DNA of 22,739 bases from Gammaproteobacteria bacterium (GTDB taxonomy: Bacteria > Pseudomonadota > Gammaproteobacteria > Eutrophobiales > Eutrophobiaceae). Position numbers and translations under genes: made by a program. Shown piece by piece: positions 2-20,550 of this stretch (positions are counted from its first letter, which is position 1; the number at the start of each line of letters is the position of its first letter). The stretch lies in NCBI GenBank assembly GCA_965222155.1, contig CBDCTH010000003.1, positions 1 through 22,739 of the forward strand. The letters are read 5' to 3'. Below the pieces are notes generated by a model. That model was not told where the DNA came from, did not search any database, and worked only from the letters and a program-made list of their open reading frames with translations.

Positions 2-193
2 TCAGGCAATCTCGCGCGATACGAGATCACGCTCTGCGAAGAAATAGAGCGCGATGACAACGACACGGTCTCTCTTCCCATCGGACGCGAGCCGTACGAC
101 GAGGACAGTGGCTACCTGCATGTCCACGGATGGCGAGTGCGCAGGTATGCTGACACGCAGGACGCAACGCATGTCGAGGAGGGAGGGATATGA
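2..193 (+). CDS. Partial (5'-truncated) acidic hypothetical protein ending ...RRYADTQDATHVEEGGI
   Basis: Frame is open from position 2 to TGA 191-193 and overlaps the next ATG (ATGA). Tail QDATHVEE also occurs at the end of ORF 2705-3004. Not in the ORF track. Confidence 0.65.
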   Translation, partial: SGNLARYEITLCEEIERDDNDTVSLPIGREPYDEDSGYLHVHGWRVRRYADTQDATHVEEGGI

Positions 194-453
194 TCTCAGA
201 GTCCATATTTTTGTTATGTGGGGACTCTTACGGCCTCAAGATCAAAGCGGCCTCCTGGGACGAGGCCATGGATAAGGCATTCATACACATGGTCGAGTCC
301 GACTATGGGGATGACGGGCAAGGGACGGAGCGGATCAGCTACAACGTGTACAAGCTGCCTGCCAGTGTGCATGGCGACTCCTACATTCCGCCGGCCGTCC
401 TGGATGGATGCGAGTCGCGGAACGGGACGTATGTCAGGGGGCGGGAGGCATGA
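190..453 (+). CDS. Small acidic protein, ASWDEA paralogue family copy A
   Basis: Motifs IKAASWDEA...ISY.VY.LPA...CES shared with the other copies; ATGA coupling at both ends. Confidence 0.8.
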   Translation: MISESIFLLCGDSYGLKIKAASWDEAMDKAFIHMVESDYGDDGQGTERISYNVYKLPASVHGDSYIPPAVLDGCESRNGTYVRGREA

Positions 454-659
454 CCTCGTCCACATTTTTTGTGAAAAGCGACTTTTGCGATTCCGCGTTC
501 AGAGCGTCCTCTTGGGACGAGGCCATGGATAGGGCAGCCGAATACGTGGCTAAATCGTACTACGGGGGTGACGAGCACGGGACGCAGCGGCCCACCTATA
601 CAATATATCGGCTGTCTGACGGATCAGACGGATGTGAGTCGCAAGAGGACGTGTTTTGA
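450..659 (+). CDS. Small acidic protein, ASWDEA family copy B (69 aa, MTSSTFFVK...)
   Basis: Start moved to ATG 450, which overlaps the stop of copy A after GGGAGGC; RASSWDEA, EHGTQR and CESQ motifs. Confidence 0.8.
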   Translation: MTSSTFFVKSDFCDSAFRASSWDEAMDRAAEYVAKSYYGGDEHGTQRPTYTIYRLSDGSDGCESQEDVF

Positions 660-689
660 GGAGAGGGGTTGGGTTCTGACATACATATC

Positions 690-696
690 TTATAAT
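690..696 (+). promoter_or_regulatory. Putative archaeal TATA box for PCNA (leaderless-type spacing)
   Basis: TTATAAT about 27 nt upstream of TTG 723. Confidence 0.45.
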
Positions 697-722
697 ACTG
701 GCTAATCTAGTAATATACAGTT

Positions 723-1457
723 TTGACATTTTCGGTAAAGACGGAAGGCTCCGACGGAATAAAGGCGGTCATGTCTGCGATCTCCACTCTGGTAGAGGAG
801 GCCACGTTTGTGGCCAATGCCGCTGGGATCACGTTCCGTGGCATGGATCCTTCACACGTGGGGCTGATAGACATTCTGTGGCCCAGTTCCGCCTTTGAGA
901 GGTATGAGTGCGACGGCGACATAAAATTTGGCGTGAGTGTAGACGAGCTCTTAAAGCTGCTCAAGCGGGCAGGCAAGAAAGACGACATTGAGATAAGCAT
1001 CTCAGAGAAAAATATGCTTTTGATATCGATGGGCAAGGACAAAAAGTATGAGATGCGGTTGATTGAGAGCTCCGTTACGGATTCGCCGCTGCCAAAGGTC
1101 ACCTTTGACGCAAGGATTGAGATTGATTCTAAGATGTTTAACAGGGTATTGGGGGATGTGCGTGTCATATCTGATTACATTGTCATATCCACGACAAAGT
1201 CGGGCGCGACATTCTCTGGGACGGGAAATATGGGTAAGGTGACAGTCGAACTGGGTGCGGATATAAAGAGTATCGAAGTAAAGACTGACTGCTCCGGGTC
1301 CTATAGCCTGGAATATCTCACTCCGTTGGTAAAGGCCGTGGGGGACACAGCCAAAATCATCACGTGTGAGTATTCAGAGGAACAGCCGCTTCGCATAGAA
1401 TTTATGATAAAGGACGTTAGAATCCACTTTTACCTGGCTCCCAGTGTAAACAACTAG
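723..1457 (+). CDS. pcn: Proliferating cell nuclear antigen (sliding clamp), archaeal type
   Basis: 244 aa with AISTLVEEATF, GMDPSHV, YSLEYL, PLRIEF and FYLAP, all typical of archaeal PCNA. Confidence 0.96.
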   Translation: MTFSVKTEGSDGIKAVMSAISTLVEEATFVANAAGITFRGMDPSHVGLIDILWPSSAFERYECDGDIKFGVSVDELLKLLKRAGKKDDIEISISEKNMLLISMGKDKKYEMRLIESSVTDSPLPKVTFDARIEIDSKMFNRVLGDVRVISDYIVISTTKSGATFSGTGNMGKVTVELGADIKSIEVKTDCSGSYSLEYLTPLVKAVGDTAKIITCEYSEEQPLRIEFMIKDVRIHFYLAPSVNN

Positions 1458-1491
1458 ATATCAGTCATGTATGTATGTACATGTTTATCTT

Positions 1492-1557
1492 TTTCTTAAT
1501 AACAATTCATAACATCTCCCACATTTCTTAATAACATTTCCCACATTTCTTAATAAC
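1492..1557. repeat. AT-rich direct repeats (TTTCTTAATAAC x3; 22-bp tandem TAACATYTCCCACATTTCTTAA x2)
   Basis: Copies at 1492, 1524 and 1546; tandem units 1510-1531 and 1532-1553. Confidence 0.85.
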
Positions 1558-1631
1558 TTTCCAAATTGCAGGCCCGTGGCATATTGCCAGATTATGATAC
1601 TATTGTCATACGCGTACAGTATATTACCGAT

Positions 1632-1746
1632 TTATTGACATTATTGACATTTATTTCTTGCTTTGTATATATTTTCGAAAAAAGAGAAAGACGTAAAACG
1701 CTAATTACAAAAAAGCATAACAAAACAACGTCAATAATGTCAATAA
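1632..1746. repeat. 17-bp perfect inverted repeat flanking an AT-rich spacer
   Basis: TTATTGACATTATTGAC (1632-1648) and GTCAATAATGTCAATAA (1730-1746); each arm is itself a tandem of TTATTGAC. Confidence 0.9.
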
Positions 1747-1807
1747 TGTTGACGTACTTGCCACAATAATATACTCACATCTACCAGGGGCCTGCAATCT
1801 TACCAGC

Positions 1808-2013
1808 CCCGGCGTACAAACAGGCGTATACTCTGACGTACAAACGCTCGGCGTATACCTGGGCCCGGCGTACAAACAGACGTATACTCTGGCGTACAAA
1901 CGCTCGGCGTATACCCGGCGTACAAATAGGCGTATACCCGGCGTACAAACAGACGTATACTCTGGCGTACAAACGCTCGGCGTATACCCGGCGTACAAAC
2001 GCCCGGCGTATAC
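1808..2013. repeat. Iteron-like tandem array, 8 units of about 22-25 bp (GGCGTACAAAC..GGCGTATAC)
   Basis: Eight CGTACAAA alternating with eight CGTATAC; no unique spacers. Confidence 0.92.
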
Positions 2014-2015
2014 AC

Positions 2016-2261
2016 CTACTTTACGCGCATAAAGTCGTCTGGTATCCTGTCAACCATCCTGACCACGTATGGATACAGTCTGGGATCCATCTCACGCACC
2101 AAGTATAGTTTTTGGCTGCGTATCCGGTTCGAGGACGTCCGGGCCCTGATCACGCCCAGCGTGCCCTCATACGCGGTGGCCAACAGCACTCCGCGATGGC
2201 CTTCGGCGCCAATGCAGAACTTGTTATCGTTCCCTTCGGGCGAGTCACGGGGGGAGATCAT
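2016..2261 (-). CDS. Hypothetical protein (81 aa, MISPRDS...)
   Basis: ATG 2261 overlaps TGA of 2258-2554; same ATGATCTC junction as the plus-strand array. Confidence 0.7.
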   Translation of the reverse strand: MISPRDSPEGNDNKFCIGAEGHRGVLLATAYEGTLGVIRARTSSNRIRSQKLYLVREMDPRLYPYVVRMVDRIPDDFMRVK

Positions 2262-2554
2262 TCCGCCCACCCCTCCAAATACGTCGCGTCCTGCGATTCG
2301 CACACATCTAGTATGTGTATCGCGACGTTACCTTGCCAGATCGGGGTCCCGGCAGGCAGCCGGTACACTGTGTAGCTGATCTGCTGCTCCTCGTATATGT
2401 CACCCGGGTGGTCGGATTCAGCCACATATTTGGCTGCTTTTTCCATGGCCTCATTCCAAGAGGCCGCTTTAATGCTGGAGCCGTAGGAGTCTGTTCGGAG
2501 AAGAAATATGGACTCATCGGCTGCGCTTGTGTGCTGTGCATGTGATTTCTGCAT
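2258..2554 (-). CDS. Small acidic protein, ASWDEA family copy C
   Basis: ESIFLL.TDSYG..IKAASWNEA...YTVYRLPAGT...CESQDAT; TATA about 25 nt upstream. Confidence 0.85.
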   Translation of the reverse strand: MQKSHAQHTSAADESIFLLRTDSYGSSIKAASWNEAMEKAAKYVAESDHPGDIYEEQQISYTVYRLPAGTPIWQGNVAIHILDVCESQDATYLEGWAE

Positions 2555-2707
2555 ACGTTCCTGTACACTGCCTGCTATATAAGGACATGTAACTTAATCT
2601 GCATAAACTGTGATACTATAGATATGGCTATAGTATCACATAGTATCACAATCTATAAATATTAAGTGACATATAGTTATATAGCAGGCAGTGTACAGGG
2701 AAATATG
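2552..2707. promoter_or_regulatory. Mirror-image divergent promoter pair (47-bp imperfect inverted repeat with 23-bp perfect core)
   Basis: 2552-2598 versus 2661-2707; core TTATATAGCAGGCAGTGTACAGG at 2677-2699 and its reverse complement at 2560-2582; each arm ends in the ATG of a paralogue. Confidence 0.85.
2609..2650. promoter_or_regulatory. 13-6-13 palindrome plus third half-site (operator or recombination site)
   Basis: TGTGATACTATAG-atatgg-CTATAGTATCACA (2609-2640), followed by a further TAGTATCACA (2641-2650). Confidence 0.7.
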
Positions 2708-3004
2708 GAAAAACTATCCAACCCGAACACGATCGTAACCGCAGAGCCCACATTTTTTGTGCGAACTGACTTTACGGGCATCACGATCAAAGCAGCCTCC
2801 TGGGACGAGGCTAAGATTAGAGCGGCCGAGTATATGGCCGAGTCCTATTACGGCGCCAACGAGCACGGGACACAGCGGATCAGATACACTGTATATCTGC
2901 TGCCCGCCGGAACCCATATCTGGAGTGAAGACTACGTATCGCCAGAGGTCCTGGAGCGATGCGAGTCGCAGGACGCGACGCATGTCGAGGAGAGAGAGGC
3001 ATGA
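2705..3004 (+). CDS. Small acidic protein, ASWDEA family copy D (99 aa)
   Basis: Start at ATG 2705, set by the mirrored promoter; IKAASWDEA, EHGTQRIRYTVYLLPAGT and CESQDATHVEEREA. Confidence 0.85.
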   Translation: MEKLSNPNTIVTAEPTFFVRTDFTGITIKAASWDEAKIRAAEYMAESYYGANEHGTQRIRYTVYLLPAGTHIWSEDYVSPEVLERCESQDATHVEEREA

Positions 3005-3180
3005 GCAAATACGCGAAAACCCTCAAGCCCTGCGACAAGTCGGATTGCCATTGCGACGGCATCGACCGGGCCGGCTGGCACGTCACCCTGGTAAAGATGG
3101 AGATGCCAAAGACTGAAGAGGGCATCCGGGGCATGGCCCGCGACTACTTCAGAGACCTCGGTATGGAGGAGGAGACATGA
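3001..3180 (+). CDS. Small Cys-containing hypothetical protein (MSKYAKTLKPC...)
   Basis: ATGA-coupled on both sides with a purine-rich SD-like run upstream. Confidence 0.7.
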   Translation: MSKYAKTLKPCDKSDCHCDGIDRAGWHVTLVKMEMPKTEEGIRGMARDYFRDLGMEEET

Positions 3181-3449
3181 TCTCTCCACAAGCAACACCA
3201 GACTGCCCTCACGGCGAGCACGAGTTCGTGTCCACCGTAGAGCACGAGGGCGGCCTGCGAGAGAATCCCGGCACCTGGGGGCACGGTGGCGCATGCGTCA
3301 TCCAGAGTCACTGCGTGCACTGCGGACTCCCGAGGACCGACGACTACTGGGACGACGCCGCCAACCAGCACGTTCCCGCTGGAATCACGTCCTACGGAGA
3401 GATCCCAGATGACTGGGATTGTGCACACACTGAGGAGGAGGAGGCATGA
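3177..3449 (+). CDS. Small acidic putative Zn-binding protein (C..H, ENPGTWGHGG, CxxCG)
   Basis: ATGA coupling; Cys/His pattern. Confidence 0.75.
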   Translation: MISPQATPDCPHGEHEFVSTVEHEGGLRENPGTWGHGGACVIQSHCVHCGLPRTDDYWDDAANQHVPAGITSYGEIPDDWDCAHTEEEEA

Positions 3450-3679
3450 TCTCTTCCTTCCACATAAGCGAAGCAAAGCCCACATTTTTTGTCGAGACCC
3501 GGCCGGATGGCTCTGGGATCCTCGCGTCCTCCTGGGAGGACGCGCTGGCCAAGGCGGCATGCAAGGGCAATCCCTATCATGAGGCCGACGATCACGGGAT
3601 GCCACGGATCAGCTACAGTGTCTACAGGATAGCTGTAGCCCTGCAAGATGGCATGCGCACAAAGGAGAGAGAGGCATGA
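3446..3679 (+). CDS. ASWDEA family copy E
   Basis: PTFFV, ASSWEDA, HG..RISYSVYR and EREA tail. Confidence 0.8.
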   Translation: MISSFHISEAKPTFFVETRPDGSGILASSWEDALAKAACKGNPYHEADDHGMPRISYSVYRIAVALQDGMRTKEREA

Positions 3680-3852
3680 TCCGTATCCACGAACAGACAA
3701 TGGCGGGATCCCGCTATCTAGTGGTCAGCGACTCTGGGCACTCCTGCAACTTCCGTGCCCTCTCCTGGGAGGGCGCGCACAGGCTCGCCATAAAATACCT
3801 GGGCGAGCACAATACACAGCCGATCCGATACTGGCTGGAGAGGGAGGCATGA
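3676..3852 (+). CDS. Divergent ASWDEA family copy F (58 aa, MIRIHEQT...RALSWEGA...IRYWLEREA)
   Basis: Translated by hand and absent from the ORF track; fills the gap exactly with ATGA overlaps at both ends. Confidence 0.75.
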   Translation: MIRIHEQTMAGSRYLVVSDSGHSCNFRALSWEGAHRLAIKYLGEHNTQPIRYWLEREA

Positions 3853-4061
3853 TCGCCAGCGCAACAACCAAGGCCCTCTATGTCGTCCTCGACGAGGCCG
3901 GTTGCGTTAGTCTATACTGGACCGCCTCCCGGGGGGAGGCACTGCGGCAGGCCGCAAAATATATCGCCGAGGGTGAATATGGTACCGACGCGTGTGACAT
4001 ACAGATGATCCGGTCCACCATATATCGGGTATCTGCCTGCCCGCAGGAGAGAGGGTATTGA
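3849..4061 (+). CDS. Divergent ASWDEA family copy G (MIASATT...ASRGEALRQAAKYIAEGEYG...IRSTIYR)
   Basis: Start moved to ATG 3849; AAKYIAE matches AAKYVAE of copy C. Confidence 0.7.
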   Translation: MIASATTKALYVVLDEAGCVSLYWTASRGEALRQAAKYIAEGEYGTDACDIQMIRSTIYRVSACPQERGY

Positions 4062-4345
4062 CCCAGATACAGTGGACGCGGTATGCCGGCACCTGGTGCC
4101 TATACGTTCCGAGAGTGTGCAACGTCGACGCGGGCGAGCAGGCGACGGTATATCGCCGTGACGGCACCGCGTCCCTGGTGCGGATCGGTCAGATCCTGGA
4201 GGACACCCCGGGATACCGCGTGCATGCGGTGGACACCGCCCCGCGACGATCCCGGTGCAGTGACTGCGGGTGTCCAATACAGGGCACATACGTGCGGTGC
4301 CGTGACTGCCACCAGGCGGCCCGTGACGAGTCGTTTGCGGATTAG
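4058..4345 (+). CDS. Hypothetical protein with C-terminal CxxC-x10-CxxC Zn finger
   Basis: TTGA overlap with the previous stop; CSDC...CRDC. Confidence 0.75.
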   Translation: MTQIQWTRYAGTWCLYVPRVCNVDAGEQATVYRRDGTASLVRIGQILEDTPGYRVHAVDTAPRRSRCSDCGCPIQGTYVRCRDCHQAARDESFAD

Positions 4346-4357: not shown

Positions 4358-4423
4358 GCTTGGCCTGAGGATGTACCCGGGCGCTAATTGATATATTGCC
4401 ATCCGCGCCGATCGGTCTTAACC

Positions 4424-5059
4424 ATGATAATTGTCATTGAGGGCGGCGACCAGGCGGGCAAAAAGACCCAGTCCTTGCTGCTGTATAAAAGACTCAAGCA
4501 GCAGATGGCTACCAAGTTGTTCAGCTTCCCAGATTACACGACCCCTGTGGGCTCCAAGATCAAAGCGATACTAGATGGGAGCGGGCGGCCGGCCCCCAAA
4601 GAGATCCACCGCCTGATGGCAGAGAACAGGCGGGAGAAGCTAGTCGAGATCTCCGGCTGCCCGGAAGGCACGATACTGATCATGAACAGGTACACGCCCT
4701 CCAATATCGCTTACGGCCTGGCAAACGGCGGCCTGGATCGGGGTTTTCTTGAGGATCTTGACCGGGATATGCCAAAGCCGGATCTGGTCATACTACTAGA
4801 TATAGATCCGCAAAAGGCGTGTGACAGAAAAATGGCAAGGCGGGACATCTTCGAGAGCAATATGGAGCTTGCCGATGCCGTCAGACAGAAATATCAGGAT
4901 CTTGCACACGAGCAAAGCTGGAAGACCGTGGATGCCGTAGATACCAAGCAGGCCGTTCATAAAAAAATATTGGACATTGTTGCCCCCATACTGCATCTTT
5001 CGGACCGGCATTATGGTTTATTTACACATGACCCTACCAGAAAGGCATGCAAGCCATAA
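4424..5059 (+). CDS. tmk: Thymidylate (dTMP) kinase
   Basis: P-loop IVIEGGDQAGKKT, FPDY.TP.G, NRY..SN.AY and PDLVILLD; start moved to ATG 4424. Confidence 0.95.
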   Translation: MIIVIEGGDQAGKKTQSLLLYKRLKQQMATKLFSFPDYTTPVGSKIKAILDGSGRPAPKEIHRLMAENRREKLVEISGCPEGTILIMNRYTPSNIAYGLANGGLDRGFLEDLDRDMPKPDLVILLDIDPQKACDRKMARRDIFESNMELADAVRQKYQDLAHEQSWKTVDAVDTKQAVHKKILDIVAPILHLSDRHYGLFTHDPTRKACKP

Positions 5060-5940
5060 GTCTCTACAGCGGTGCGGGAGGCATGGATCTCGGATTCACA
5101 CAAGCCGGGGTCCACACAATCCTGGCAAATGATTCATGGAATATCGCCGCACAAACTTACCTAACGAACAGGCCTGGTGCTAACGTGCTGATAGGCGGCA
5201 TAGACCGGCACGCAACCACATTGATAGACACGGGGCGCCAAAACAGGGTTGAGATTGTGTTTGGAGGTCCACCGTGTCAAGACTTTAGCACTTTCGGCAA
5301 GAAAACTGGCGAGGGCGAGAGGGCAAACCAGACCGCCAACTTTGCGAGTGTCGCCCTCGCCATATCCCCGGATTGGATAGTGATGGAAAATGTCAACACC
5401 ATAACGTCGATCGGGAGCAGGCATATAGATATGATAAGCAAGCAGATCAAGGAGGCCGGGTACGGGATAACAGCGCAGGTGCTGAACGCGGTGGATTTTG
5501 GCGTGCCGCAGTTTCGGCGGAGATTCTTCCTGATAGCCAAGAGGAACGGGAGTGACAACGATCAAGAGTTAAAATCCCTGATAGACGGCGAGAAATGCGA
5601 CAGAAGAACGGTAAGGGATTATGATCCGTCAATAGACACGGATTACTATTACAGTCGCGGATGGAGCGGCAAGCGGGCGATATTCAGCGTGGACGAGCCA
5701 AGCCCGACCATATTAGGAGAGAACCGCCCGATACCGCCAAGTTACAAGATACACCATAACGACGCGACAGATGACTTGGGGCTGGTGCGACCACTTACCA
5801 CCGAGGAGCGCGCTTCACTACAAACCTTCCCAGAAACGTACAGGTTTATCGGCAACAAGACCGAGCGTGAACAGCAAGTGGGAAACTCAGTGCCGCCCAT
5901 GATGGCACGGGCAGTCGCCGAGGCCGTAAGGAAGCGATGA
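5047..5940 (+). CDS. DNA (cytosine-5) methyltransferase, orphan
   Basis: Motif I YSGAGG, IV GGPPCQ, VI ENV, VIII QFRRR, IX/X LQTFP and GNSVPP. Confidence 0.96.
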   Translation: MQAISLYSGAGGMDLGFTQAGVHTILANDSWNIAAQTYLTNRPGANVLIGGIDRHATTLIDTGRQNRVEIVFGGPPCQDFSTFGKKTGEGERANQTANFASVALAISPDWIVMENVNTITSIGSRHIDMISKQIKEAGYGITAQVLNAVDFGVPQFRRRFFLIAKRNGSDNDQELKSLIDGEKCDRRTVRDYDPSIDTDYYYSRGWSGKRAIFSVDEPSPTILGENRPIPPSYKIHHNDATDDLGLVRPLTTEERASLQTFPETYRFIGNKTEREQQVGNSVPPMMARAVAEAVRKR

Positions 5941-5961
5941 CATGCTCCATGGGCTGCACTC

Positions 5962-6885
5962 TTATCCATTCAGATCATGGCTTAAAATCAGAACCTCTCT
6001 TGAAGCCTTGTTGCTTGACATGCTGTAACTCCACTCTGGCTTGATCACGTGATAATCACTGTACATATCACGGATGTACGGGATGTCGTTGTATGACAGT
6101 ATCCATTTATCTCGACCATGGAGAATCTTGGCCAATCCCTCGTGATCAAACCCACGGTGCATGTTGCCGTTCTTTCCGTACAGATTGCAATTTTTGAGCG
6201 GATACGGCGGATCAAGATACAGCAATATATCCCGTGACCTGCTTATGGAGTCCTTAAAGTCCATCAATTCAACGGATATGTTTTGCACTCTAAAGTTCGT
6301 CACCCGTTCAATCGACGATTCCGTAAACCCGGGATGATTCGGCGACATCCCGCCCGAAAGCGTTATCCCCGAAAATGACGACCTGTTCAGGGCATAAAAT
6401 ATCGCGGCCCTTTCGTACTTATTATAATTTGACAGGGTTTTTTGTAATCGGTAAAAATCAGGTTTTGACAGTGGATAATACCCCCTTATGATCTCTGCCA
6501 GTTTTTTTGGGCGGTTTAGGATGCACTGCCAAAACTCTACTAACGGTTTAAAGTTGTCATAACCGTAAACACGTATACCGTGGTTTGCGCATGCCAGCTC
6601 CACTGACCCCCCTCCTAGGAACGGCGAAGCCATCTCTTGGGTATTGTCAGGAATGAAGTTAAGTATTTGCAACACGCCTTTTGATTTGCCGCCTGGGTAT
6701 CTTAACGGTGATCTGGATTTCAATTTCCCGGCCATCTGAAGTCTCATGGCATCTGTTGCACCAAGGCTACTGTATATGCGGTGGCATGCATCACATAACC
6801 ATAACAGGTGCTCGTTCGGGTAAATAAACCATGGATGGAGCCGCACGTTGCTTCGTTTGCATCTTTTGCAAGTACCGCGATTCAC
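5962..6885 (-). CDS. Dam/D12-class N6-adenine DNA methyltransferase with N-terminal Cys4 extension
   Basis: LRYPGGKS, PFLGGGS, LDPPY and LSYND; N-terminal CKRC...LCDACH. Confidence 0.93.
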   Translation of the reverse strand: MNRGTCKRCKRSNVRLHPWFIYPNEHLLWLCDACHRIYSSLGATDAMRLQMAGKLKSRSPLRYPGGKSKGVLQILNFIPDNTQEMASPFLGGGSVELACANHGIRVYGYDNFKPLVEFWQCILNRPKKLAEIIRGYYPLSKPDFYRLQKTLSNYNKYERAAIFYALNRSSFSGITLSGGMSPNHPGFTESSIERVTNFRVQNISVELMDFKDSISRSRDILLYLDPPYPLKNCNLYGKNGNMHRGFDHEGLAKILHGRDKWILSYNDIPYIRDMYSDYHVIKPEWSYSMSSNKASREVLILSHDLNG

Positions 6886-6968
6886 GGCAGCCTATCGTCC
6901 GGGTGATGAAACCATAGCTGGAGCCGCATGCAGCTTCGTTTGCGTCTTTTGCAAGTGCAGCGATTCAT
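6882..6968 (-). CDS. 28-aa mini-ORF, duplicated N-terminus of the Dam-like gene (MNRCTCKRRKRSCMRLQLWFHHPDDRLP)
   Basis: 83-bp-period tandem duplication; ATGA and GTGA overlaps at its ends. Confidence 0.5.
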   Translation of the reverse strand: MNRCTCKRRKRSCMRLQLWFHHPDDRLP

Positions 6969-7648
6969 GGAACGCGCATGCCTTTGCGTGGTATGAGCAC
7001 AGCGGAGTCAAATGCTCCCAGCCGCGCATGCAGTTGTAGTAACCACCATTTCGACTGGGACTTAAATTCTTGCACCGTGTCGGTGCCTTCTACACTGCAT
7101 AGCACGACGACCTGACTTATTTCCTTGCCCGTCAACTCCTTATACATGACGGCATATGCCGTTGCCTGTATATAATAATCGGTCATCCATCCTTCCGACT
7201 GCGGTTTCCTTTTTGTCTTATAATCCAGTATGGTGTCCTGGCCGTCGTATTTGCAGATCAGATCAGCAGTGCCTGCCATCCGGTGTACGTCTGAGTATAG
7301 TCTCATTTCAGTCCCATAAACAGTGCTAACCTTGTCTATATATGGCCGAAAATTCTTGTGATGCTGATTCACGAGCGGGCCGTATTCACAGTCCATATCC
7401 TGTGTTTTGCCTAGCAGGTATAGTTCATTCAGTTTATGGACACTTCGCCCGATCGTCCCGGCCCTGTTTTTGATACGATCCGCCTCCGCACTCCCTACGA
7501 GATCAATCCATTTCCGCAGCGAAGTCTTGGCGAACTCCGGCCTGGTGTGACTCAATATGGTCGTGATGCCCGGATATTGGTGTCCTGACGGCGTCTTATA
7601 GACGTGATCGTGCTGTCTTTTTAGAAGCGTGGGCTGCTCAAATTTCAT
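6965..7648 (-). CDS. PD-(D/E)XK phage-type exonuclease
   Basis: YPGITTILS, G..VH, AGTAD, ILDYKT and Q.TAYA; TATATATA about 25 nt upstream. Confidence 0.9.
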   Translation of the reverse strand: MKFEQPTLLKRQHDHVYKTPSGHQYPGITTILSHTRPEFAKTSLRKWIDLVGSAEADRIKNRAGTIGRSVHKLNELYLLGKTQDMDCEYGPLVNQHHKNFRPYIDKVSTVYGTEMRLYSDVHRMAGTADLICKYDGQDTILDYKTKRKPQSEGWMTDYYIQATAYAVMYKELTGKEISQVVVLCSVEGTDTVQEFKSQSKWWLLQLHARLGAFDSAVLIPRKGMRVP

Positions 7649-7711
7649 ACATTTGTATAATGTTCGTTATATATATACATATTGTTGTTAAAACTGTAAA
7701 AATTACATACA

Positions 7712-7795
7712 GGTGTCACGCCCCACTGATCCTGGCATGTACGCAAGGCAGTGCGAGGTAGTAGGTAGGTGTGGATCAGGGGGGACGTAAACACT
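7712..7795 (-). ncRNA. Candidate approx. 85-nt hairpin RNA (strand inferred)
   Basis: Terminal pairing GTGT..ACG-CCCC-a-CTGATCC with GGATCAG-GGGGG-a-CGT..ACAC; inner CGCA/TGCG stem; minus-strand TATAAAAA near 7818-7825 and T-runs downstream. Confidence 0.4.
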
Positions 7796-7849
7796 TACAA
7801 ACACTACATATACCGCCTTTTTATAGCTTTAATATGCCGGGCAGGTCGC

Positions 7850-7967
7850 TATGATATCCAGACTACGACACGTCTAGTTTACTTAGAAGATCATAATCTA
7901 GTGTATTCGCAACGGTAATCTTCCATATTTTAAAATCACCTGATTTTATGATATCCAGGCCACGACA
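7850..7967 (+). repeat. 21-bp direct repeat pair TATGATATCCAGRCYACGACA
   Basis: 7850-7870 and 7947-7967, 19 of 21 identical, upstream of the rightward operon. Confidence 0.75.
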
Positions 7968-7994
7968 TCAGGGTTTATTACATAGGACTTACCA

Positions 7995-8375
7995 ATGGAT
8001 GACATGATCCCAAAAAAGCACAGGGTTAACGCGGCGTTCCGCACGGGAGTCGACGCGCTGGAAGATCTGTGCGGATACGTGCTGCGCGGGAACGACGTGC
8101 GAGCTCACAAGCAGAAGGCAATCGTGGAACGATGCGTCACGGGCATAATGGATTGTCTGGCCGAAGTGCCTGCCACTCCCATGTATAGCCCGGAAATGGG
8201 CAAAGGTGGCCAAATGCTGCCCCTCTGCGGCTACTGCACGGAGAGTGACGGGGTAAATATAAAATCCTCAAAGTACGCCGATACGGACGAGCCGACGCAC
8301 CTTTGCAACAAATGCTGCACATCTACCACGGAGATGGCAGCGAGCAGCATAGACCTGACGCATTACCGGGGGTGA
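7995..8375 (+). CDS. Hypothetical protein with CxxC...CxxC Zn finger
   Basis: LCGYC...LCNKC; start could be ATG 8004. Confidence 0.7.
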   Translation: MDDMIPKKHRVNAAFRTGVDALEDLCGYVLRGNDVRAHKQKAIVERCVTGIMDCLAEVPATPMYSPEMGKGGQMLPLCGYCTESDGVNIKSSKYADTDEPTHLCNKCCTSTTEMAASSIDLTHYRG

Positions 8376-8415
8376 TGACATAACCACAAAAAGCAACACC
8401 ATACCCAGACGGGCC

Positions 8416-8565
8416 GTGAAGGGTCTTTGCAGTTGGTGCCATACGTCCAACGTTAGTATCGTGATACGAGGCGACCATAGCGTCTGCCTGCCGTGCATAA
8501 AAAAGTACAAGGGTATTAATGGATACCTCTCGTACCAGGCAGCCCAAGGCGGTCAGGATCGCTAG
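8416..8565 (+). CDS. Small Zn-finger protein (GLCSWCH...VCLPC); start uncertain
   Basis: Hand translation from GTG 8416; the frame is open further upstream to a GGTGA SD-like site that has no ATG. Confidence 0.5.
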   Translation: MKGLCSWCHTSNVSIVIRGDHSVCLPCIKKYKGINGYLSYQAAQGGQDR

Positions 8566-8613
8566 GTATACCGGCATGCGCCATTTTAATACCACGGGAT
8601 CAACATACATCTG

Positions 8614-8928
8614 ATGGCCGACATTAGACTAGACGAGACCACGCTGATCCTGACCGTCCCGGCAGACGATACCGAGCTTATGGTGTCTGACGTATCCGAG
8701 TCCCAAGACGGGAGAAAAGTCAAGAAGATCACGCTGGCAAACCTGATCAAGATACTCGACGGGCCGCAGAAAATGCAAATACAGACGAGCCATCCGGCCG
8801 TCCCCAACGGCTCCGATTACAACCTGATTTACGCTTATTCACCGGGCGTGGATCAGGACACGCAGGTATACGTGGCGCTCCGGCAGGCCGACGGCACGTA
8901 TACAAACAGCGAGGTGCGCGTTGCCTAG
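8614..8928 (+). CDS. Hypothetical protein, possibly virion/tail associated
   Basis: ADDTELMVSD...KKITLANL resembles motifs I associate with phage fibre proteins; overlaps the adhesin gene. Confidence 0.65.
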   Translation: MADIRLDETTLILTVPADDTELMVSDVSESQDGRKVKKITLANLIKILDGPQKMQIQTSHPAVPNGSDYNLIYAYSPGVDQDTQVYVALRQADGTYTNSEVRVA

Positions 8929-11524
8929 ATATGCCAAGATCGGCGTCGGGCATTATGCCGGGCAGTCATGGTACGACAAGCCCGAAACCGACTCTGACGC
9001 GGACGTGTCCAAGACGCTCCTTGAGCGTGACACCGGCAGGCACTTTATCCTATACGAGGGCGACTTTTGGAACTTCCAAAAGTATGAGGAGTCCATACGC
9101 AACGAGCCAAACTTTGATCATCAGCACAGGCCGTCCCAGCACCGGCAACTCGGCGACTCGCTGTCACGGGCCGTCCTGCGGTTTTGTTGGAGGCTCGACG
9201 GCGTTGACACCGACATTGACGACTTAAACTCTCTGTCACTCACCACCAACCCAAGCTGGCCCCGCTCAGAACTGTACCCGTTCCGGGGCGAAAAGTCATT
9301 CGCATTCAACGGCACGAACCACGGCGAGGTGTCGTATCCCGACTTTGACGCGACCGAGGGGTTTTTGATCGGGGGCTGGTTCAAGACGATCAGCGAAGCG
9401 GAGTCAACCATATTCAAGTATCGCGACGGCGCCGGCGCCTACGTGGAGGTGGCAATGAACACGACGGCAGGCAAGATAGAGGCCACCGTATCCGGGAGCG
9501 GCGGCAGGAACGCCGACGCGCCAGAAGTGGACATAACCGACGACAGGTGGCATTACGTGGGAGTGATGTACGACGAGCGAACGGGCGACACGTACCTCAT
9601 AATCGCCACACGATACGAAATAGAGTACTTTGCAAAATTCAAGGCGGGCGGAATGTGGAATTTCACCCCGGTAAACGGCAAGCTCGTGCTGGGCGCCGGA
9701 TATGACGGCTCCGCGACGGAGGACAATTTTATCGGGCAGGCAAAGAATTTCAGCGTGTACAAGCATCCTGACATTCACGTGCTAAAACACATCCTTGCCG
9801 GCGGCAGCGACGGTATCTCAGAAAATTCTACTTACACGCTGGTGTCAGATGTCAACGCCCCATACGCAAGTCATTTTGAGCTAGAACGCACGGCATCCGG
9901 CATCGCGGAGCACTGGCACGATTATGTCATAAATCTCGACGGCGGAGAGTATGACGTTATAATATCCGAGCAGCGGGGCCCCAATCAGGGCTCGTACGAC
10001 CTGTTTATCAACGGGGTAAAATACACGACTGCCAGCCGCCACTCCCAAACCAGAACGACACGAAGTTATGACGAATATCTCATACTGCGACACAAGGCCA
10101 TGCCGCGCGGGGCCACTCGCGTGAGGATCGTCGTGCACGGTGACATGTGCATATTCAACGAGATCTCGTTCCAAAAGGTGTCGGGCCCTGACACGAACAG
10201 CAGTGACTCGTTTTTCCTGTCCCCCAAGAATTTCAACCGCTCGAACCGCCTGTTCTTTTCGAATCCGACGCGCAACGCGCCTTACGGCCTGTCCACCACA
10301 TTCTTTGCCAAAAATGCGGACTCTTATCTGGAAGCGGACATGTATGCCGCCGAAGGCGGGTATCACTGCACACTGTCGATAAGGAATGGAAGCAACAGGG
10401 CAAAAGTGGCCATTATGATAAACGGCAAGACATGCGCCGAGCACGAACCGTTTGGAAAGACGGGTTGGGAGCTCGTCGGGTTTCACACGCACCTGAAAAA
10501 GGGGCATAACGTCGTCCGCGTGGCAGGAATCGGCACGAATGCCGCGAACTCAAAGTCTGACATCGGCGTGGGGCACTTTGCGGCCCACGCGAAAATGTAC
10601 GGCGGAATGTCGGATCGCGTGGTGATCAACCCGTGGGACACGGATATTGAGCACGTGGGTGCATCTGTAGTCGGCAGGCAGGTAGGAAACTATAGGTTTG
10701 GCGCCCAGACGCATTTTGACAAGGGAGACGTGGCGGCATACTATCGGTATTTCTCCGGCGGATGGTACGGCGTGGAGGGAACGGTAAACAAGCCTGTGAG
10801 CGGGAACAGCGGGGGACTCGACGTTTTGATCGACGACGCCAAGGTGCTAAGCGTGGCGAACGCGACCACATACGACTATAAGGAAAATGCCTTCGCAAAA
10901 GTTACGGCGGGATACCATAAGGTGTCGCTGAGAAATAATGATGCCGTGAACCCGATCGTGATAGGCGAGGTCGTCTTTGAGGCGATAGGCGTATTAAAAA
11001 ACGAGACCCCGCCGGAATTTGACAAAAAATACGTACCCATCGGGGCGGTCCAAACGCTCTTGGACGGAGAAGACGACATGTCCCTGATTTTGGGGGATAC
11101 AGACTACGGGGAAATCATAGTCAAGGTAAGCGCGACAGGCAGCGCGTCGAGCATCTTCGGACTTCTTTTGCGACTAAACGACAAGAAAACCGGCTACAAG
11201 TATCGGATCAGAATGGAGTCACCGATATACACGAGCCGCGCAACGTACTCAGCCAACGGCAAGGAGACTCGCCTTATGAATACGCAACTTAGCGGCACGT
11301 CAGCCCAAAAGGGATGCTGGGGGGACGTGCGCCTGCGCGTTGACGATTACGCCGGCACCAAGATAATAAGCGGCCTCCACTACTTTAATGCCTCGCAGGC
11401 GGGATATCAGGAGGGGGCGTTCCGGCTGGCCGGGGCGAAGGTATCAAAGATCGCGATATACAAGATCGGCAGCGCCACGATAAACGAGGGCGCGAGGATA
11501 GAGGTGTTTGGCAGTGACGTTTGA
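8921..11524 (+). CDS. Large adhesin/receptor-binding-like protein: LamG (ConA-like) domain plus three CBM-like beta-sandwich repeats
   Basis: FNG..GWFKT..DDRWHYVGVMYD..LGA..FIG (LamG pattern); repeated G.Y.(V/C)...(L/I).I(N/D)G...G.(N/H).V(R/S) units. Confidence 0.75.
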   Translation: MPRYAKIGVGHYAGQSWYDKPETDSDADVSKTLLERDTGRHFILYEGDFWNFQKYEESIRNEPNFDHQHRPSQHRQLGDSLSRAVLRFCWRLDGVDTDIDDLNSLSLTTNPSWPRSELYPFRGEKSFAFNGTNHGEVSYPDFDATEGFLIGGWFKTISEAESTIFKYRDGAGAYVEVAMNTTAGKIEATVSGSGGRNADAPEVDITDDRWHYVGVMYDERTGDTYLIIATRYEIEYFAKFKAGGMWNFTPVNGKLVLGAGYDGSATEDNFIGQAKNFSVYKHPDIHVLKHILAGGSDGISENSTYTLVSDVNAPYASHFELERTASGIAEHWHDYVINLDGGEYDVIISEQRGPNQGSYDLFINGVKYTTASRHSQTRTTRSYDEYLILRHKAMPRGATRVRIVVHGDMCIFNEISFQKVSGPDTNSSDSFFLSPKNFNRSNRLFFSNPTRNAPYGLSTTFFAKNADSYLEADMYAAEGGYHCTLSIRNGSNRAKVAIMINGKTCAEHEPFGKTGWELVGFHTHLKKGHNVVRVAGIGTNAANSKSDIGVGHFAAHAKMYGGMSDRVVINPWDTDIEHVGASVVGRQVGNYRFGAQTHFDKGDVAAYYRYFSGGWYGVEGTVNKPVSGNSGGLDVLIDDAKVLSVANATTYDYKENAFAKVTAGYHKVSLRNNDAVNPIVIGEVVFEAIGVLKNETPPEFDKKYVPIGAVQTLLDGEDDMSLILGDTDYGEIIVKVSATGSASSIFGLLLRLNDKKTGYKYRIRMESPIYTSRATYSANGKETRLMNTQLSGTSAQKGCWGDVRLRVDDYAGTKIISGLHYFNASQAGYQEGAFRLAGAKVSKIAIYKIGSATINEGARIEVFGSDV

Positions 11525-14220: not shown

Positions 14221-14691
14221 ATGACCATTACTACCGACGAGGTGATGCGCAATAGCATGCGTCTGCACGTGGCCGCGCTGGAAGCCGCATGCGCGCCTTT
14301 GACGCAAAACATGGATGACATCAGGACAGACACGTTTTTTTGGGCGCCGTCGCTGCCGATATTGGAGCGCGTCCTACGAGAGGACGCTCCGCAAGTCCGT
14401 GAGTACACGGAGGAGCTGTACGACTGTGATGATTTTGCGTTTACCCTAAAGGCAAAACTGGCCAGACAAGGAATAACCGCCGTCGGCGTGGTGCTGGACT
14501 TTTCCGGAGAGCATGCATACAACGTGGCAGCCACGCTAAACCCGAAACGGGACAAAAACGGGCGACTCACCACCACATGCGTGTACAGGCACTTTGATCC
14601 AGTCCTGATTGAGCCGCAGGGCAACAAGATAATAACCAAAGGGATCGGAGAAGGCCAATACAAGGCCGACATGGGGCTGGTGATATGGTAA
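14221..14691 (+). CDS. Papain-like cysteine peptidase, MOA C-terminal (Agglutinin_C-like) type
   Basis: DCDDFA...HAYN...IEPQ gives a Cys-His-Glu triad as in the Marasmius oreades agglutinin protease domain. Confidence 0.8.
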   Translation: MTITTDEVMRNSMRLHVAALEAACAPLTQNMDDIRTDTFFWAPSLPILERVLREDAPQVREYTEELYDCDDFAFTLKAKLARQGITAVGVVLDFSGEHAYNVAATLNPKRDKNGRLTTTCVYRHFDPVLIEPQGNKIITKGIGEGQYKADMGLVIW

Positions 14692-15206
14692 CAAAGCCCC
14701 CCAAGCCAAAAAAGTCAAAGCGTCGTCAAAGCCGCCCGCTCATATCCTCACTGATGGCGGCCCGGCAGATGGTCGCAAAACGCATGATACATGTGTCTCC
14801 GGCGGAGGTTCGGACCATCTGTAATATGCCCAACGTGGTCTTGCTTGATCGTGAGTATCGTACGGTAAAACGGGGAAAGCTGAAGAAGGTGCTGGCATGG
14901 GACAAGAGGAACAAGGACAGCACGGGACACACAAAAAGGTATTCTTCGAGGTACGCAGATGACATGTATGATCAGGACGATTACGCGTTTTCGCTAAAGG
15001 CGCGCCTTGCGGCAGTAGGGATATCATCCGGCGTGCTGATTGACACGACTGACTCCAAGACTGCCTATAACGTGGGCGTTCACATCTACGTGGTGACGCT
15101 TACCCGCAAATCGCGTGAAAAGGACTTGTCCATATGTGTGATAGATCCCATCGATAACAAGTTTATAGCGCCGCCCGTCGTCAAGAAGGGGTGGTGCATA
15201 TGGTAA
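14685..15206 (+). CDS. Apparently inactive paralogue of the upstream peptidase, with basic N-terminus
   Basis: YDQDDYAFSLKARLA..GI...TAYNV...IDP aligns with YDCDDFAFTLKAKLA..GI...HAYNV...IEP. Confidence 0.8.
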   Translation: MVTKPPKPKKSKRRQSRPLISSLMAARQMVAKRMIHVSPAEVRTICNMPNVVLLDREYRTVKRGKLKKVLAWDKRNKDSTGHTKRYSSRYADDMYDQDDYAFSLKARLAAVGISSGVLIDTTDSKTAYNVGVHIYVVTLTRKSREKDLSICVIDPIDNKFIAPPVVKKGWCIW

Positions 15207-19636: not shown

Positions 19637-19975
19637 TTATGTATGCTGGCTTGAGCGATTTCTTGACATTTTAGTCAAGAGCACCAACCGGCTAAATCGC
19701 TCGTCGTCTTTGATGTGTTGCATGATCGACACTAGCCTGTGGCATGTGTGACAAAGCAGACAAAACCTGCCGGGATCTGCAAGTATCACAGGATGCACGT
19801 ATTCTGCATAGTCATACCAGTTGGTAAAATCAGAGTGTTTTTTGTCTGTTCGCAGGTATACGATATGGTGAAACTGGAATTGTTTGCCGTATGCCTTGTG
19901 ACACACGTAACACCGATTATGGTATAACTGGGCCGCCTGCTGTCGGAGCCGTTGTATGTCATGCTTTCTAGTCAT
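19637..19975 (-). CDS. HNH-like Zn-binding nuclease
   Basis: CYVC...FHHI...LLCHTCH; the usual central Asn is not evident. Confidence 0.7.
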   Translation of the reverse strand: MTRKHDIQRLRQQAAQLYHNRCYVCHKAYGKQFQFHHIVYLRTDKKHSDFTNWYDYAEYVHPVILADPGRFCLLCHTCHRLVSIMQHIKDDERFSRLVLLTKMSRNRSSQHT

Positions 19976-20550
19976 GTGTCTTTATTTCTCCATATCTCCA
20001 GGATGCGACGTTTCGGACTGATTGTCTTTTTGGGTTGATTGTGCCGTTTATGGGCCGCGTAGTATTTGCGCTGGTATGCGGCGATCCGCTCTTTGTTTTT
20101 CTGGTAATACCCGTGTCCCTGCTCGATCATTTGTTTTTTGGTGTCTTGGTAGTACTTGCGGCGGTATTCGGTGATCCGTTTCTTGTTGATTTGGGCGTAC
20201 TTGCGCATATATTCGGCGAGCTGTTTCTTGTGGTCTAGGTAATACTTGTGCTGGTATTCGGCAATCTGTTTCTTGTGGCTTTGTTGATACTTGAGCATGT
20301 GTTTGGATATTTGCTCTTTGTGGGTCTGTCGGTACTTGTTCGCACGTTCGGCGATCTGTTCTTTGTGGGTCTGCCTGTACTTGCTCACATATTTAGCGAC
20401 CTGCTTCTTGTGAGTCTGGTGGTATCTTCTCCAATATTCGGCGAGCTGTTTCTTGTGGGTTCGGCGGTATTCACGTTGGTATTTGATTAATTGTTCCTTA
20501 TGTGTATTATAATACTTACGATTTCGTTCGGCTTTTTGTTGACGGTTCAT
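19972..20550 (-). CDS. Basic helical protein with ten tandem 15-aa repeats (HKxQ(I/L)xxYxxxYxxx)
   Basis: 45-bp periodicity visible in the DNA; ATGA coupling to the HNH-like ORF. Confidence 0.85.
   Translation of the reverse strand: MNRQQKAERNRKYYNTHKEQLIKYQREYRRTHKKQLAEYWRRYHQTHKKQVAKYVSKYRQTHKEQIAERANKYRQTHKEQISKHMLKYQQSHKKQIAEYQHKYYLDHKKQLAEYMRKYAQINKKRITEYRRKYYQDTKKQMIEQGHGYYQKNKERIAAYQRKYYAAHKRHNQPKKTISPKRRILEIWRNKDT

Follow-up and report, generated by a model that had tools for sequence, protein, structure and literature searches.

Small proteins of a mosaic viral gene array and their apparent origin from one domain of a two-domain phage protein family

Multi-copy accessory families that recombine are an already known phenomenon in viruses. 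Large eukaryotic DNA viruses show copy-number 'accordions' and multigene families, examples being the amplification of K3L in poxviruses and the multigene families (MGFs) of African swine fever virus (ASFV). Phages and plasmids encode Ocr and ArdA, acidic anti-restriction proteins that mimic DNA. In archaeal rudiviruses, small multi-copy early genes located behind a shared strong promoter include anti-CRISPRs (PMC11065993). Here we analysed a cluster of small open reading frames (ORFs) at positions 190-4061 of contig CBDCTH010000003.1 (C3), one of 12 contigs in assembly GCA_965222155.1; the whole contig, 22,739 bases in length, is referred to as the window. The initial annotation, made from the sequence alone, had recognised seven paralogues and regarded them as a recombining family of small acidic proteins that act against host defence or in host takeover, each variant with its own target. 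Seven intact ORFs of 58-99 amino acids were indeed found at these coordinates:

190..453, + strand: paralogue A, 87 amino acids, isoelectric point (pI) 4.64
450..659, + strand: paralogue B, 69 amino acids, pI 4.29; short tail; its start overlaps the stop of A (ATGA)
2258..2554, - strand: paralogue C, 98 amino acids, pI 4.66; opens the leftward operon
2705..3004, + strand: paralogue D, 99 amino acids, pI 4.74; opens the rightward operon
3446..3679, + strand: paralogue E, 77 amino acids, pI 5.84
3676..3852, + strand: paralogue F, 58 amino acids, pI 8.0; truncated form
3849..4061, + strand: paralogue G, 70 amino acids, pI 5.18; the most divergent copy

The array resembles the K3L accordions and the ASFV MGFs in the expansion, contraction and recombination of a gene family within a virus lineage. 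It differs from them in virus realm and in the proteins involved, and the amplified unit here would be one domain split off a two-domain gene. Like Ocr and ArdA, the products are small, mostly acidic proteins of a putative early region close to DNA methyltransferases, but the likeness extends to net negative charge only and there was no sequence or fold match between Ocr or ArdA and the window family. A conserved Cys/His domain, such as the one discussed below, is to our knowledge not a feature of Ocr/ArdA-type proteins. The AcrID1-family paralogues and terminal early genes of the Sulfolobus rudivirus SIRV2 are likewise small-protein copies behind a shared strong TATA promoter (PMC11065993), and here the sharing takes the form of identical 23-nucleotide cores ahead of C and D. 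However, no sequence or fold similarity to these was detected, and no Aca8-type regulator was identified in the window. Moreover, the window genes lie in apparently translationally coupled operons, whereas those of SIRV2 are single genes.

We consider it highly probable that the copies are paralogues which arose by the splitting of a two-domain gene and the multiplication of one of its domains, and that they are subject to turnover and mosaic exchange. The two-domain parent and the partner domain inside the array had been overlooked by the initial annotation.

A common core could be aligned across all seven copies, with identities to A of 23-49%. It consists of a TFFV strand, further strands, a helix starting with A-(A/S)-S-W-(D/E)-E-A, a variable loop and a strand of the type (R)ISYTVY(R)LP. 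The long forms add a second variable loop that ends in C-E-S-x-D-A-T-H/Y-V. The head of F also occurs with a full tail, namely in the related protein P0017. The membership test was kept non-circular by a profile from which all E-, F- and G-type sequences had been excluded. Against this profile E, G and F scored 44.9, 40.2 and 28.4 bits, whereas shuffled copies (494 scored out of 600) reached a maximum of 9.7 bits, so that E, F and G must be considered true members. The family hidden Markov model (HMM) did not recognise the neighbouring ORFs X1 (2-193), orf59, 3177-3449, orf95 and orf81 (E>=14 at Z=1000). The patches in which the initial annotation had seen a mosaic are all present: ESIFLL..DSYG is common to A and C, TFFV and CCACATTTTTTGT to B, D and E, EHGTQR to B and D, and both YTVY.LPAGT.IW and CESQDAT to C and D. 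In F and G the proposed signature ASW(D/E)EA is degenerate, reading ALSWEGA and TASRGEA, respectively. The C-terminal '(E)REA' common to the copies is largely imposed by the ribosome-binding site of the next gene and by the ATGA start/stop overlap.

Of 1.84 billion proteins searched with the profile of this narrow family, only 23 representatives matched at E<=0.001, and a set of 5.8 billion yielded 28 clusters. Several of the matches were longer and continued after the domain into a Cys/His domain homologous to the product of the window ORF 3177-3449. Nine were full fusions of an N-terminal (N) domain with the Cys/His domain (P0020, P0029, P0031, P0039, P0040, P0041, P0051, P0054 and P0055). 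Some of the fused forms are located on large contigs (2.38 Mb and 277-396 kb). In P0055 a P-type copy, a near relative of the window genes, continues in frame into a domain that shares 84% identity with the product of 3177-3449. In P0035 the N domain is followed only by a relic of the Cys/His domain, DCPHGAH. In a scan of metagenome contigs with Cys/His patterns, 63 of the 197 pattern matches encoded two-domain relatives. Their consensus reads '...Y...DG....IEA.S.EEA...A..W...GDW....T.WV.V.V...' in the N part and 'P.EP.C....HDW.SP.E.VGG..ENPGVWGHGGGV.I.EVC.HCG..R.TDTWAQ...TG.QGL.SV.Y' in the C part. The Cys/His domain is strongly conserved (P.EP.C..H ... ENPGVWGHGGG ... C.HCG ... TDTW), with a mean consensus frequency in the two-domain family of 0.63 as against 0.41 for the N domain.

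When HMMs of the two domains were applied to these 63 loci, 57 had exactly one N and one Cys/His domain and six had the Cys/His domain only, some of the latter being cut by contig ends. None of the 63 had more than one N domain, although most of the loci are short and multiplicity elsewhere is possible. Applied to the window, the same two HMMs recognised four N domains, those of A-D, and a single Cys/His domain. The wide N-domain HMM, built from 56 sequences of metagenome loci and fusions, matched D at 2.3e-14, B at 2e-13, A at 3.7e-10 and C at 3.4e-9; E, F and G were reached by the narrower profile only. The Cys/His HMM matched 3177-3449 at 3e-24, and the domain is not part of the polypeptide of any of the seven copies but the product of this separate gene. 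The likeness to the two-domain family, whose acidic N domain has an 'EA.S..EA' helix start, lies in the homologous and likewise acidic N domain of A-D, and in close relatives (P0055 and P0020) that are fused in frame; the difference is that the window encodes each domain by a gene of its own and that multiplication has affected the N domain alone. On this comparison of domains, the seven copies are split-off derivatives rather than full members of the two-domain family. In other words, it appears that in an archaeal-type virus lineage the two-domain gene was split, the Cys/His part being encoded once and the N domain multiplied.

The two-domain family itself is large and without a name. Its profile matched 556 clusters at E<=1e-5 (clusters at 90% identity); among the 120 clusters listed, every name given was 'hypothetical protein' and none had a precomputed Pfam domain. 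Pfam and PHROGs gave no match at threshold for eight two-domain relatives. The proteins are extremely acidic: the median pI is 4.33, 49 of 56 have a pI below 5, and net charge has a median of -23.5 at a median length of 181 residues. The contigs that carry them are phage-like and range from 32 to 71% G+C. In 12 longer loci, 18 of the 117 neighbouring ORFs had a Pfam match at E<=1e-5, namely to DUF5131 and N6/N4 methylase, to YqaJ, RecT and Dam, to resolvase and dNMP kinase, and to mycobacteriophage L5 gp82 and GP88. Judging from these families, the surroundings would be phage early, recombination and DNA-modification neighbourhoods. In one phage-like contig of 32% G+C (L041:7428-11962) the two-domain gene lies between a homologue of adenylosuccinate synthetase (E 2e-126) and a dNMP-kinase-like gene, a pair that recalls phage base-modification pathways.

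Evidence for turnover of the array came from two further contigs of the same assembly, C2 and C5, which are variants of the same element. The window has seven copies of the family, C2 has 10 (one of them frameshifted) and C5 at least six before the contig ends, in agreement with the earlier proposal that the family expands. The order of genes in C2 is P-A*-B / PCNA / orf81, Ca, Cb (- strand) / H-E-F-Cys90-I-G-orf95, and in C5 it is P-A-B / PCNA / orf81, Ca (- strand) / ... J-F, Cys90 denoting the Cys/His gene at 3177-3449. This gene is ahead of E-F in the window and behind E-F in C2. The arrays are unlike between contigs whose flanks are 95-100% identical: at the nucleotide level C2 matches the window with 100% identity over 7947-9775, 96.7% over 5981-7870 and 95.4% in the A-B-PCNA block, but with 70-88% in parts of the array. 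A* of C2 (13517-13800 = L013:1828-2111) has its frame shifted by a 17-nucleotide tandem duplication, GTCGAGTCCGACTATGG, so that it has either recently become a pseudogene or been misassembled. In a search of related genomes the family was not found in 40, the one match among 41 being the assembly itself.

Mosaic structure was visible by eye in several members. P0003 combines the N-terminal half of D with the loop of C (SDHPGDIYEEQQISY), P0008 the helix and loop of A with the tail of P0030, P0032 the middle of J with the tail of Cb, and P0017 the head of F with an A-type tail. A pairwise homoplasy index (PHI) calculated for 27 long-form protein sequences with 72 informative columns was 0.60, compared with 0.86±0.04 in permuted data; not one of 2000 permutations was as low, and the result was also significant with windows of 10, 15 and 20. 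In a 3SEQ-like triplet test on 28 protein sequences, six of 17,880 ordered triplets passed the Bonferroni limit of 2.8e-6; they include window genes C (head of P0023 with body of P0010) and D (P0003 with a J-type loop). Finally, the two halves of the protein gave incongruent trees in the approximately unbiased (AU) test: for 20 long-form sequences under LG+G4, the N-half data rejected the C-half tree (p-AU 0.0047) and the C-half data rejected the N-half tree (p-AU 6.5e-5). The swapping of segments by recombination suspected from the patches is thus borne out across the family.

Four further runs, belonging to three studies, also yielded contigs for the region, but in short pieces only. At gene junctions they join 3004 to 3859 (run contigs X2 and X4) and 3454 to 3859 or 3869 (run contigs X1, X2 and X5). 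Within genes, run contigs X1 and X2 join the body of D to the tail of A (2904 to 400) and the head of F to a body resembling that of D (3788 to 2873, separated by 40 letters of other sequence). These joints were placed at 85% likeness, some with short sides, and are supporting evidence only. Taken together, the array has won and lost copies, their order has changed and some have been pieced together from segments; breakpoints fall at the conserved gene junctions of about 20-27 nucleotides and also within genes.

The ratio of non-synonymous to synonymous substitution rates (dN/dS) between orthologues of the variant contigs rests on tiny numbers of changes: 0.09 for A (synonymous:non-synonymous 3:1), 0.13-0.18 for B, 0.05 for F (5:1), 0.41 for G and 0.95 for Ca (3:11). 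Between paralogues it was 0.3-0.7. These values suggest that the genes of the array are real and under constraint.

The copies are distributed over three transcription units around a PCNA gene and a repeat-rich region. From left to right the order is X1-A-B, then PCNA, AT-rich repeats (1490-2015), orf81 and C on the - strand, and D-orf59-Cys90-E-F-G-orf95. The features other than the copies are:

2..193, + strand: X1, an ORF cut by the contig start, with a family-like tail DTQDATHVEEGGI and a ribosome-binding site/ATGA junction to A
723..1457, + strand: PCNA sliding-clamp gene with a TATA-like box about 27 nucleotides before its TTG start
2016..2261, - strand: orf81, basic (pI 9.64), coupled downstream of C
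2546..2713, no strand: divergent promoter region with 74-nucleotide inverted repeat arms and a central palindrome with ATAGTATCAC repeats
3001..3180, + strand: orf59, a small Cys/His-containing ORF with no assigned family, ATGA-coupled
3177..3449, + strand: Cys90, a free-standing gene for a Cys/His (putative zinc) domain with predicted metal ligands C, H, C, C; in relatives its homologue is fused to the C-terminal side of the family's domain
4058..4345, + strand: orf95, the last small gene of the operon, with CxxC...CxxC and no assigned family

In the leftward unit C is transcribed before orf81, and the rightward operon continues into the genes for a thymidylate kinase and a cytosine methylase. 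Every internal gene begins at an ATGA that overlaps the preceding stop, with GGAGG-like purines upstream, inside the last codons of the previous gene. These GGAGG...ATGA junctions indicate that the later genes are probably coupled translationally. The end of X1 (156-193) is 87% identical to 2967-3004. The first genes, C and D, are different. They are preceded by an identical TATA-containing stretch of 23 nucleotides, TTATATAGCAGGCAGTGTACAGG (2560-2582 on the - strand and 2677-2699 on the + strand), which puts a TATA box 21-28 nucleotides upstream of each ATG, and no Shine-Dalgarno sequence was found ahead of either start codon. A TATA box without a leader is the archaeal leaderless pattern, and C and D would be of this leaderless type. 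A homologous promoter region recurs on the sister contig C2.

Two observations concern the surroundings of the leftward unit. The N-terminus of the unrelated basic orf81, MISPRDSPEG, also heads the family member C2_Ca/P0016 (G000:C2:15660-15992), and it seems that recombination at a gene junction moved a start region between these unrelated neighbours. The AT-rich stretch directly after PCNA (1490-2015) contains a 63-nucleotide repeat three times, GGCGTACAAACGC.CGGCGTATAC four times, TTTCTTAATAAC repeats and 28-nucleotide inverted repeats (1632-1659 and 1719-1746). It is kept at 82-89% on C2 and looks like a replication origin or some other protein-binding array.

Structure prediction yielded a model of D with a mean predicted local distance difference test score (pLDDT) of 79.8 and a predicted template modelling score (pTM) of 0.70, in the order strand-strand-strand-helix-strands. 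For the fused protein P0020 the values were 83.6 and 0.72, and the second domain was all-beta. According to these models the N domain would be a small alpha/beta domain of three strands, a helix opening with A-S-W-D/E-E-A, and further strands. Foldseek found no match in PDB or BFVD at E<=0.001, and exhaustive structural alignment gave no chain at Z>=5; the best scores, 4.5 and 4.8, were tied with unrelated folds. The small viral inhibitors AcrIF9 (Z 3.8 and 4.5), AcrIC9 (4.2), T7 Gp2 (4.1) and T4 Dmd (3.8 and 4.4) scored level with FN3 domains and ribosomal proteins, and nothing is drawn from these values. For the Cys/His domain a weak WRKY-like structural row (Z 3.7) is a lead only. A match to a known housekeeping or structural fold, which would have spoken against the reading of the initial annotation, was not found in these fold searches; the incongruent trees of the two halves and the varying copy number likewise run counter to the outcomes it had named as refuting.

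Sequence searches were similarly unproductive. A profile search of PDB sequences gave only E>=0.16, and the ESM Atlas gave scores of at most 0.84, with rows under the acceptance bar that are of value as leads only. Among the candidates that were rejected, DUF4288 matched C best at 19.6 bits (E 0.0011), over the strand-helix motif only and below the gathering threshold of 27 bits; it was matched at E<=0.1 in four of 28 members, and hhalign against one DUF4288 protein gave a probability of 0.9%. DUF6894 appeared as an Atlas row with a template modelling (TM) score of 0.64, under the bar, and was absent from hmmscans at E<=1. Both are small domains to which no function has been assigned. A HicB/UPF0150-like fold, suggested by the strand-helix pattern 'T.EEA', was unsupported in any search, and a weak Burkholderia stretch (42% over 38 residues) in a scan of genome contigs was taken as chance. 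The narrow family was not found in IMG/VR, nor in INPHARED phages by tblastn with D, and N-domain patterns had no match in JGI metagenomes. A prior description of the family was not found in the literature searched, supplements being outside the scope.

The remainder of the window encodes three DNA methyltransferases, a PD-(D/E)XK nuclease, a D5-type primase-helicase, DUF5131, and large ConA-like and lectin-like proteins. The best matches to the primase-helicase in a phage collection were two records of 'Nitrosopumilaceae spindle-shaped virus', which originate from PMC10866085; one aligned over 59% of the query at 28.8% identity (E 5e-61) and the other over 84% at 22.1%. The main genome of the assembly is bacterial, the bacterial small-subunit rRNA model scoring 1584 bits. 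PCNA is restricted to C2, C3 and C5, archaeal L31e was not found in the assembly and MCR was not found in the host-marker search. Because the rRNA is bacterial, PCNA is present only on three virus-like contigs and archaeal L31e is missing, C2, C3 and C5 are probably co-binned viral DNA, which may explain the 7.28% contamination figure of the assembly.

Some features of the contig lie outside the array. The thymidylate kinase and C5-cytosine methylase genes (4363-5981) occur in the window only and are missing from C2, where 18123 joins the equivalent of 5981, so the difference appears to be an indel of a nucleotide-metabolism and methylation cassette. A basic protein of 192 amino acids (19972-20550, - strand) consists almost entirely of about a dozen tandem units Y..(T/S)HK(E/K)Q(I/L)A.Y..KY and has a weak Pfam match to ORF126-like. 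Two adjacent paralogues (14221-14691 and 14685-15206) with Lectin_C_term-like domains (E 8e-7 and 2e-6) adjoin the large ConA-like and membrane proteins and are possibly virion or adhesion components.

What might be the function of the array? Our preferred but tentative explanation, for which we claim somewhat less than even confidence, is that the array encodes binding modules which are expressed early and directed against host proteins, most plausibly against those of defence or nucleic-acid handling. It draws on the acidity of the proteins, on a conserved core that carries variable loops, on turnover, on surroundings rich in methyltransferases and on the analogy to rudiviruses. An acidic surface may mimic nucleic acid, and each copy could act by itself or substitute for the others as partner of the one Cys/His-domain protein (3177-3449). 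The diversity of loops and tails would supply differing specificities, and the operon architecture appears well suited to co-expression. The initial annotation was right in so far as it saw an uncharacterised family that expands and exchanges segments; its assignment to anti-defence or host takeover, with specific targets for each variant, found no backing in similarity to anti-defence proteins or in positive selection. A more far-reaching proposal, which we regard as unlikely, is a combinatorial counter-defence kit. In it, the one conserved Cys/His subunit would combine in trans with one or another of 7-10 N subunits that recombine and can replace each other, and the fused single-copy form, present in hundreds of bacteriophages, would represent a new and widespread anti-defence family, possibly of the nucleic-acid-mimic type. 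If this were true, the array would provide a virus of archaea of the ammonia-oxidising type with a stock of specificities open to shuffling.

Several points weigh against the preferred explanation. There is no sequence or fold link to a known anti-defence protein, with nothing at threshold in Pfam, PHROGs, NCBIfam and PADLOC. The description 'acidic' holds for A-D (pI 4.29-4.74), is weak for G (5.18) and E (5.84) and fails for F (8.0), which leaves E, F and G without clear acidity. The dN/dS ratios are below 1 throughout (0.05-0.95 for orthologues) and give no signal of positive selection. The main genome of the assembly is bacterial, and the viral contigs look co-binned with it. The protein PHI and triplet tests were adapted from DNA methods, and adjacent residues are not fully independent. 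PHI at the DNA level was not significant among the assembly's own copies (p 0.72, 0.41, 0.95 and 0.20), probably because synonymous sites are saturated (paralogue dS 0.45-1.3); exchange has therefore been demonstrated family-wide and not specifically inside the window. Lastly, the location around PCNA and a repeat-rich, origin-like region would suit a role in replication equally well.

Such a role is possible, though we would not call it probable. The domain, alone or with the Cys/His domain, could modulate viral or host enzymes of the replisome, of recombination or of nucleotide metabolism, with PCNA, the primase-helicase or nucleases as conceivable partners and the copies as sub-functionalised isoforms rather than products of an arms race. 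The copies flank PCNA and the AT-rich repeats, the rightward operon runs on into thymidylate kinase and cytosine methylase, the single-copy relatives adjoin YqaJ/RecT, resolvase, dNMP kinase and DUF5131, and the purifying selection on orthologous copies fits as well. However, variation between 7 and 10 copies and reshuffling between otherwise 95-100% identical contigs would be unexpected for a core helper, the fold searches showed no likeness to known replication factors, and no PIP-box-like motif was noticed on reading the sequences, no formal scan having been made. It is rather unlikely that the array reflects a largely neutral birth-and-death process in which repeats at the junctions of ribosome-binding site and ATGA promote unequal recombination, copies appear and vanish with hardly any functional consequence, and only one or two of them matter. 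The conserved junction repeat is present at six places, the joints in other runs coincide with junctions, one copy on C2 is frameshifted, F is truncated from a longer type and positive selection is not apparent, all of which would be in keeping with it. Against this, all seven copies of the window are intact and coupled, dN/dS for orthologous A, B and F is only 0.05-0.18, and the retention of the core by old, divergent paralogues (23-49% identity) argues that several distinct copies are maintained.

It is still less probable that the copies are small binders with a part in regulation, antitoxin-like action or superinfection exclusion, their target being a toxin or nuclease encoded by the virus itself or by a competing element. 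Their small size, the coupling of the basic orf81 to C and the weak structural likeness to the T4 antitoxin Dmd (Z 3.8 and 4.4) might be cited in favour, but many unrelated folds gave equal Z scores, the neighbouring genes included no detected toxin family, and ten copies per array would be unusual for an antitoxin. An assembly artefact, in which an assembler crossed between strain variants at repeats and so created mosaics and variable arrays, could be suspected since the region fragments into short contigs in other runs and one bin holds three variant contigs. We consider this very improbable because the mosaic blocks have diverged from their 'parents' and occur in proteins of many separate assemblies, because the same joints recur in runs of two or three studies, and because the ORFs remain intact.

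As far as literature searches and family libraries show, the protein family, its two-domain parent and the apparent split-and-amplify route have not been described. The present work defines an uncharacterised family that has no Pfam or PHROG model and supplies a domain map for it. It provides what seems to be a clear case of a viral gene that was split and of which only the variable domain was then amplified and shuffled. The split-and-amplify route suggests that specificity resides in the N domain and that the Cys/His domain is the constant module. In viruses akin to the spindle-shaped ones of ammonia-oxidising archaea, genes for early functions or host interaction are barely characterised, and the single-copy fused form in bacteriophages would offer a tractable route to the function of the family.

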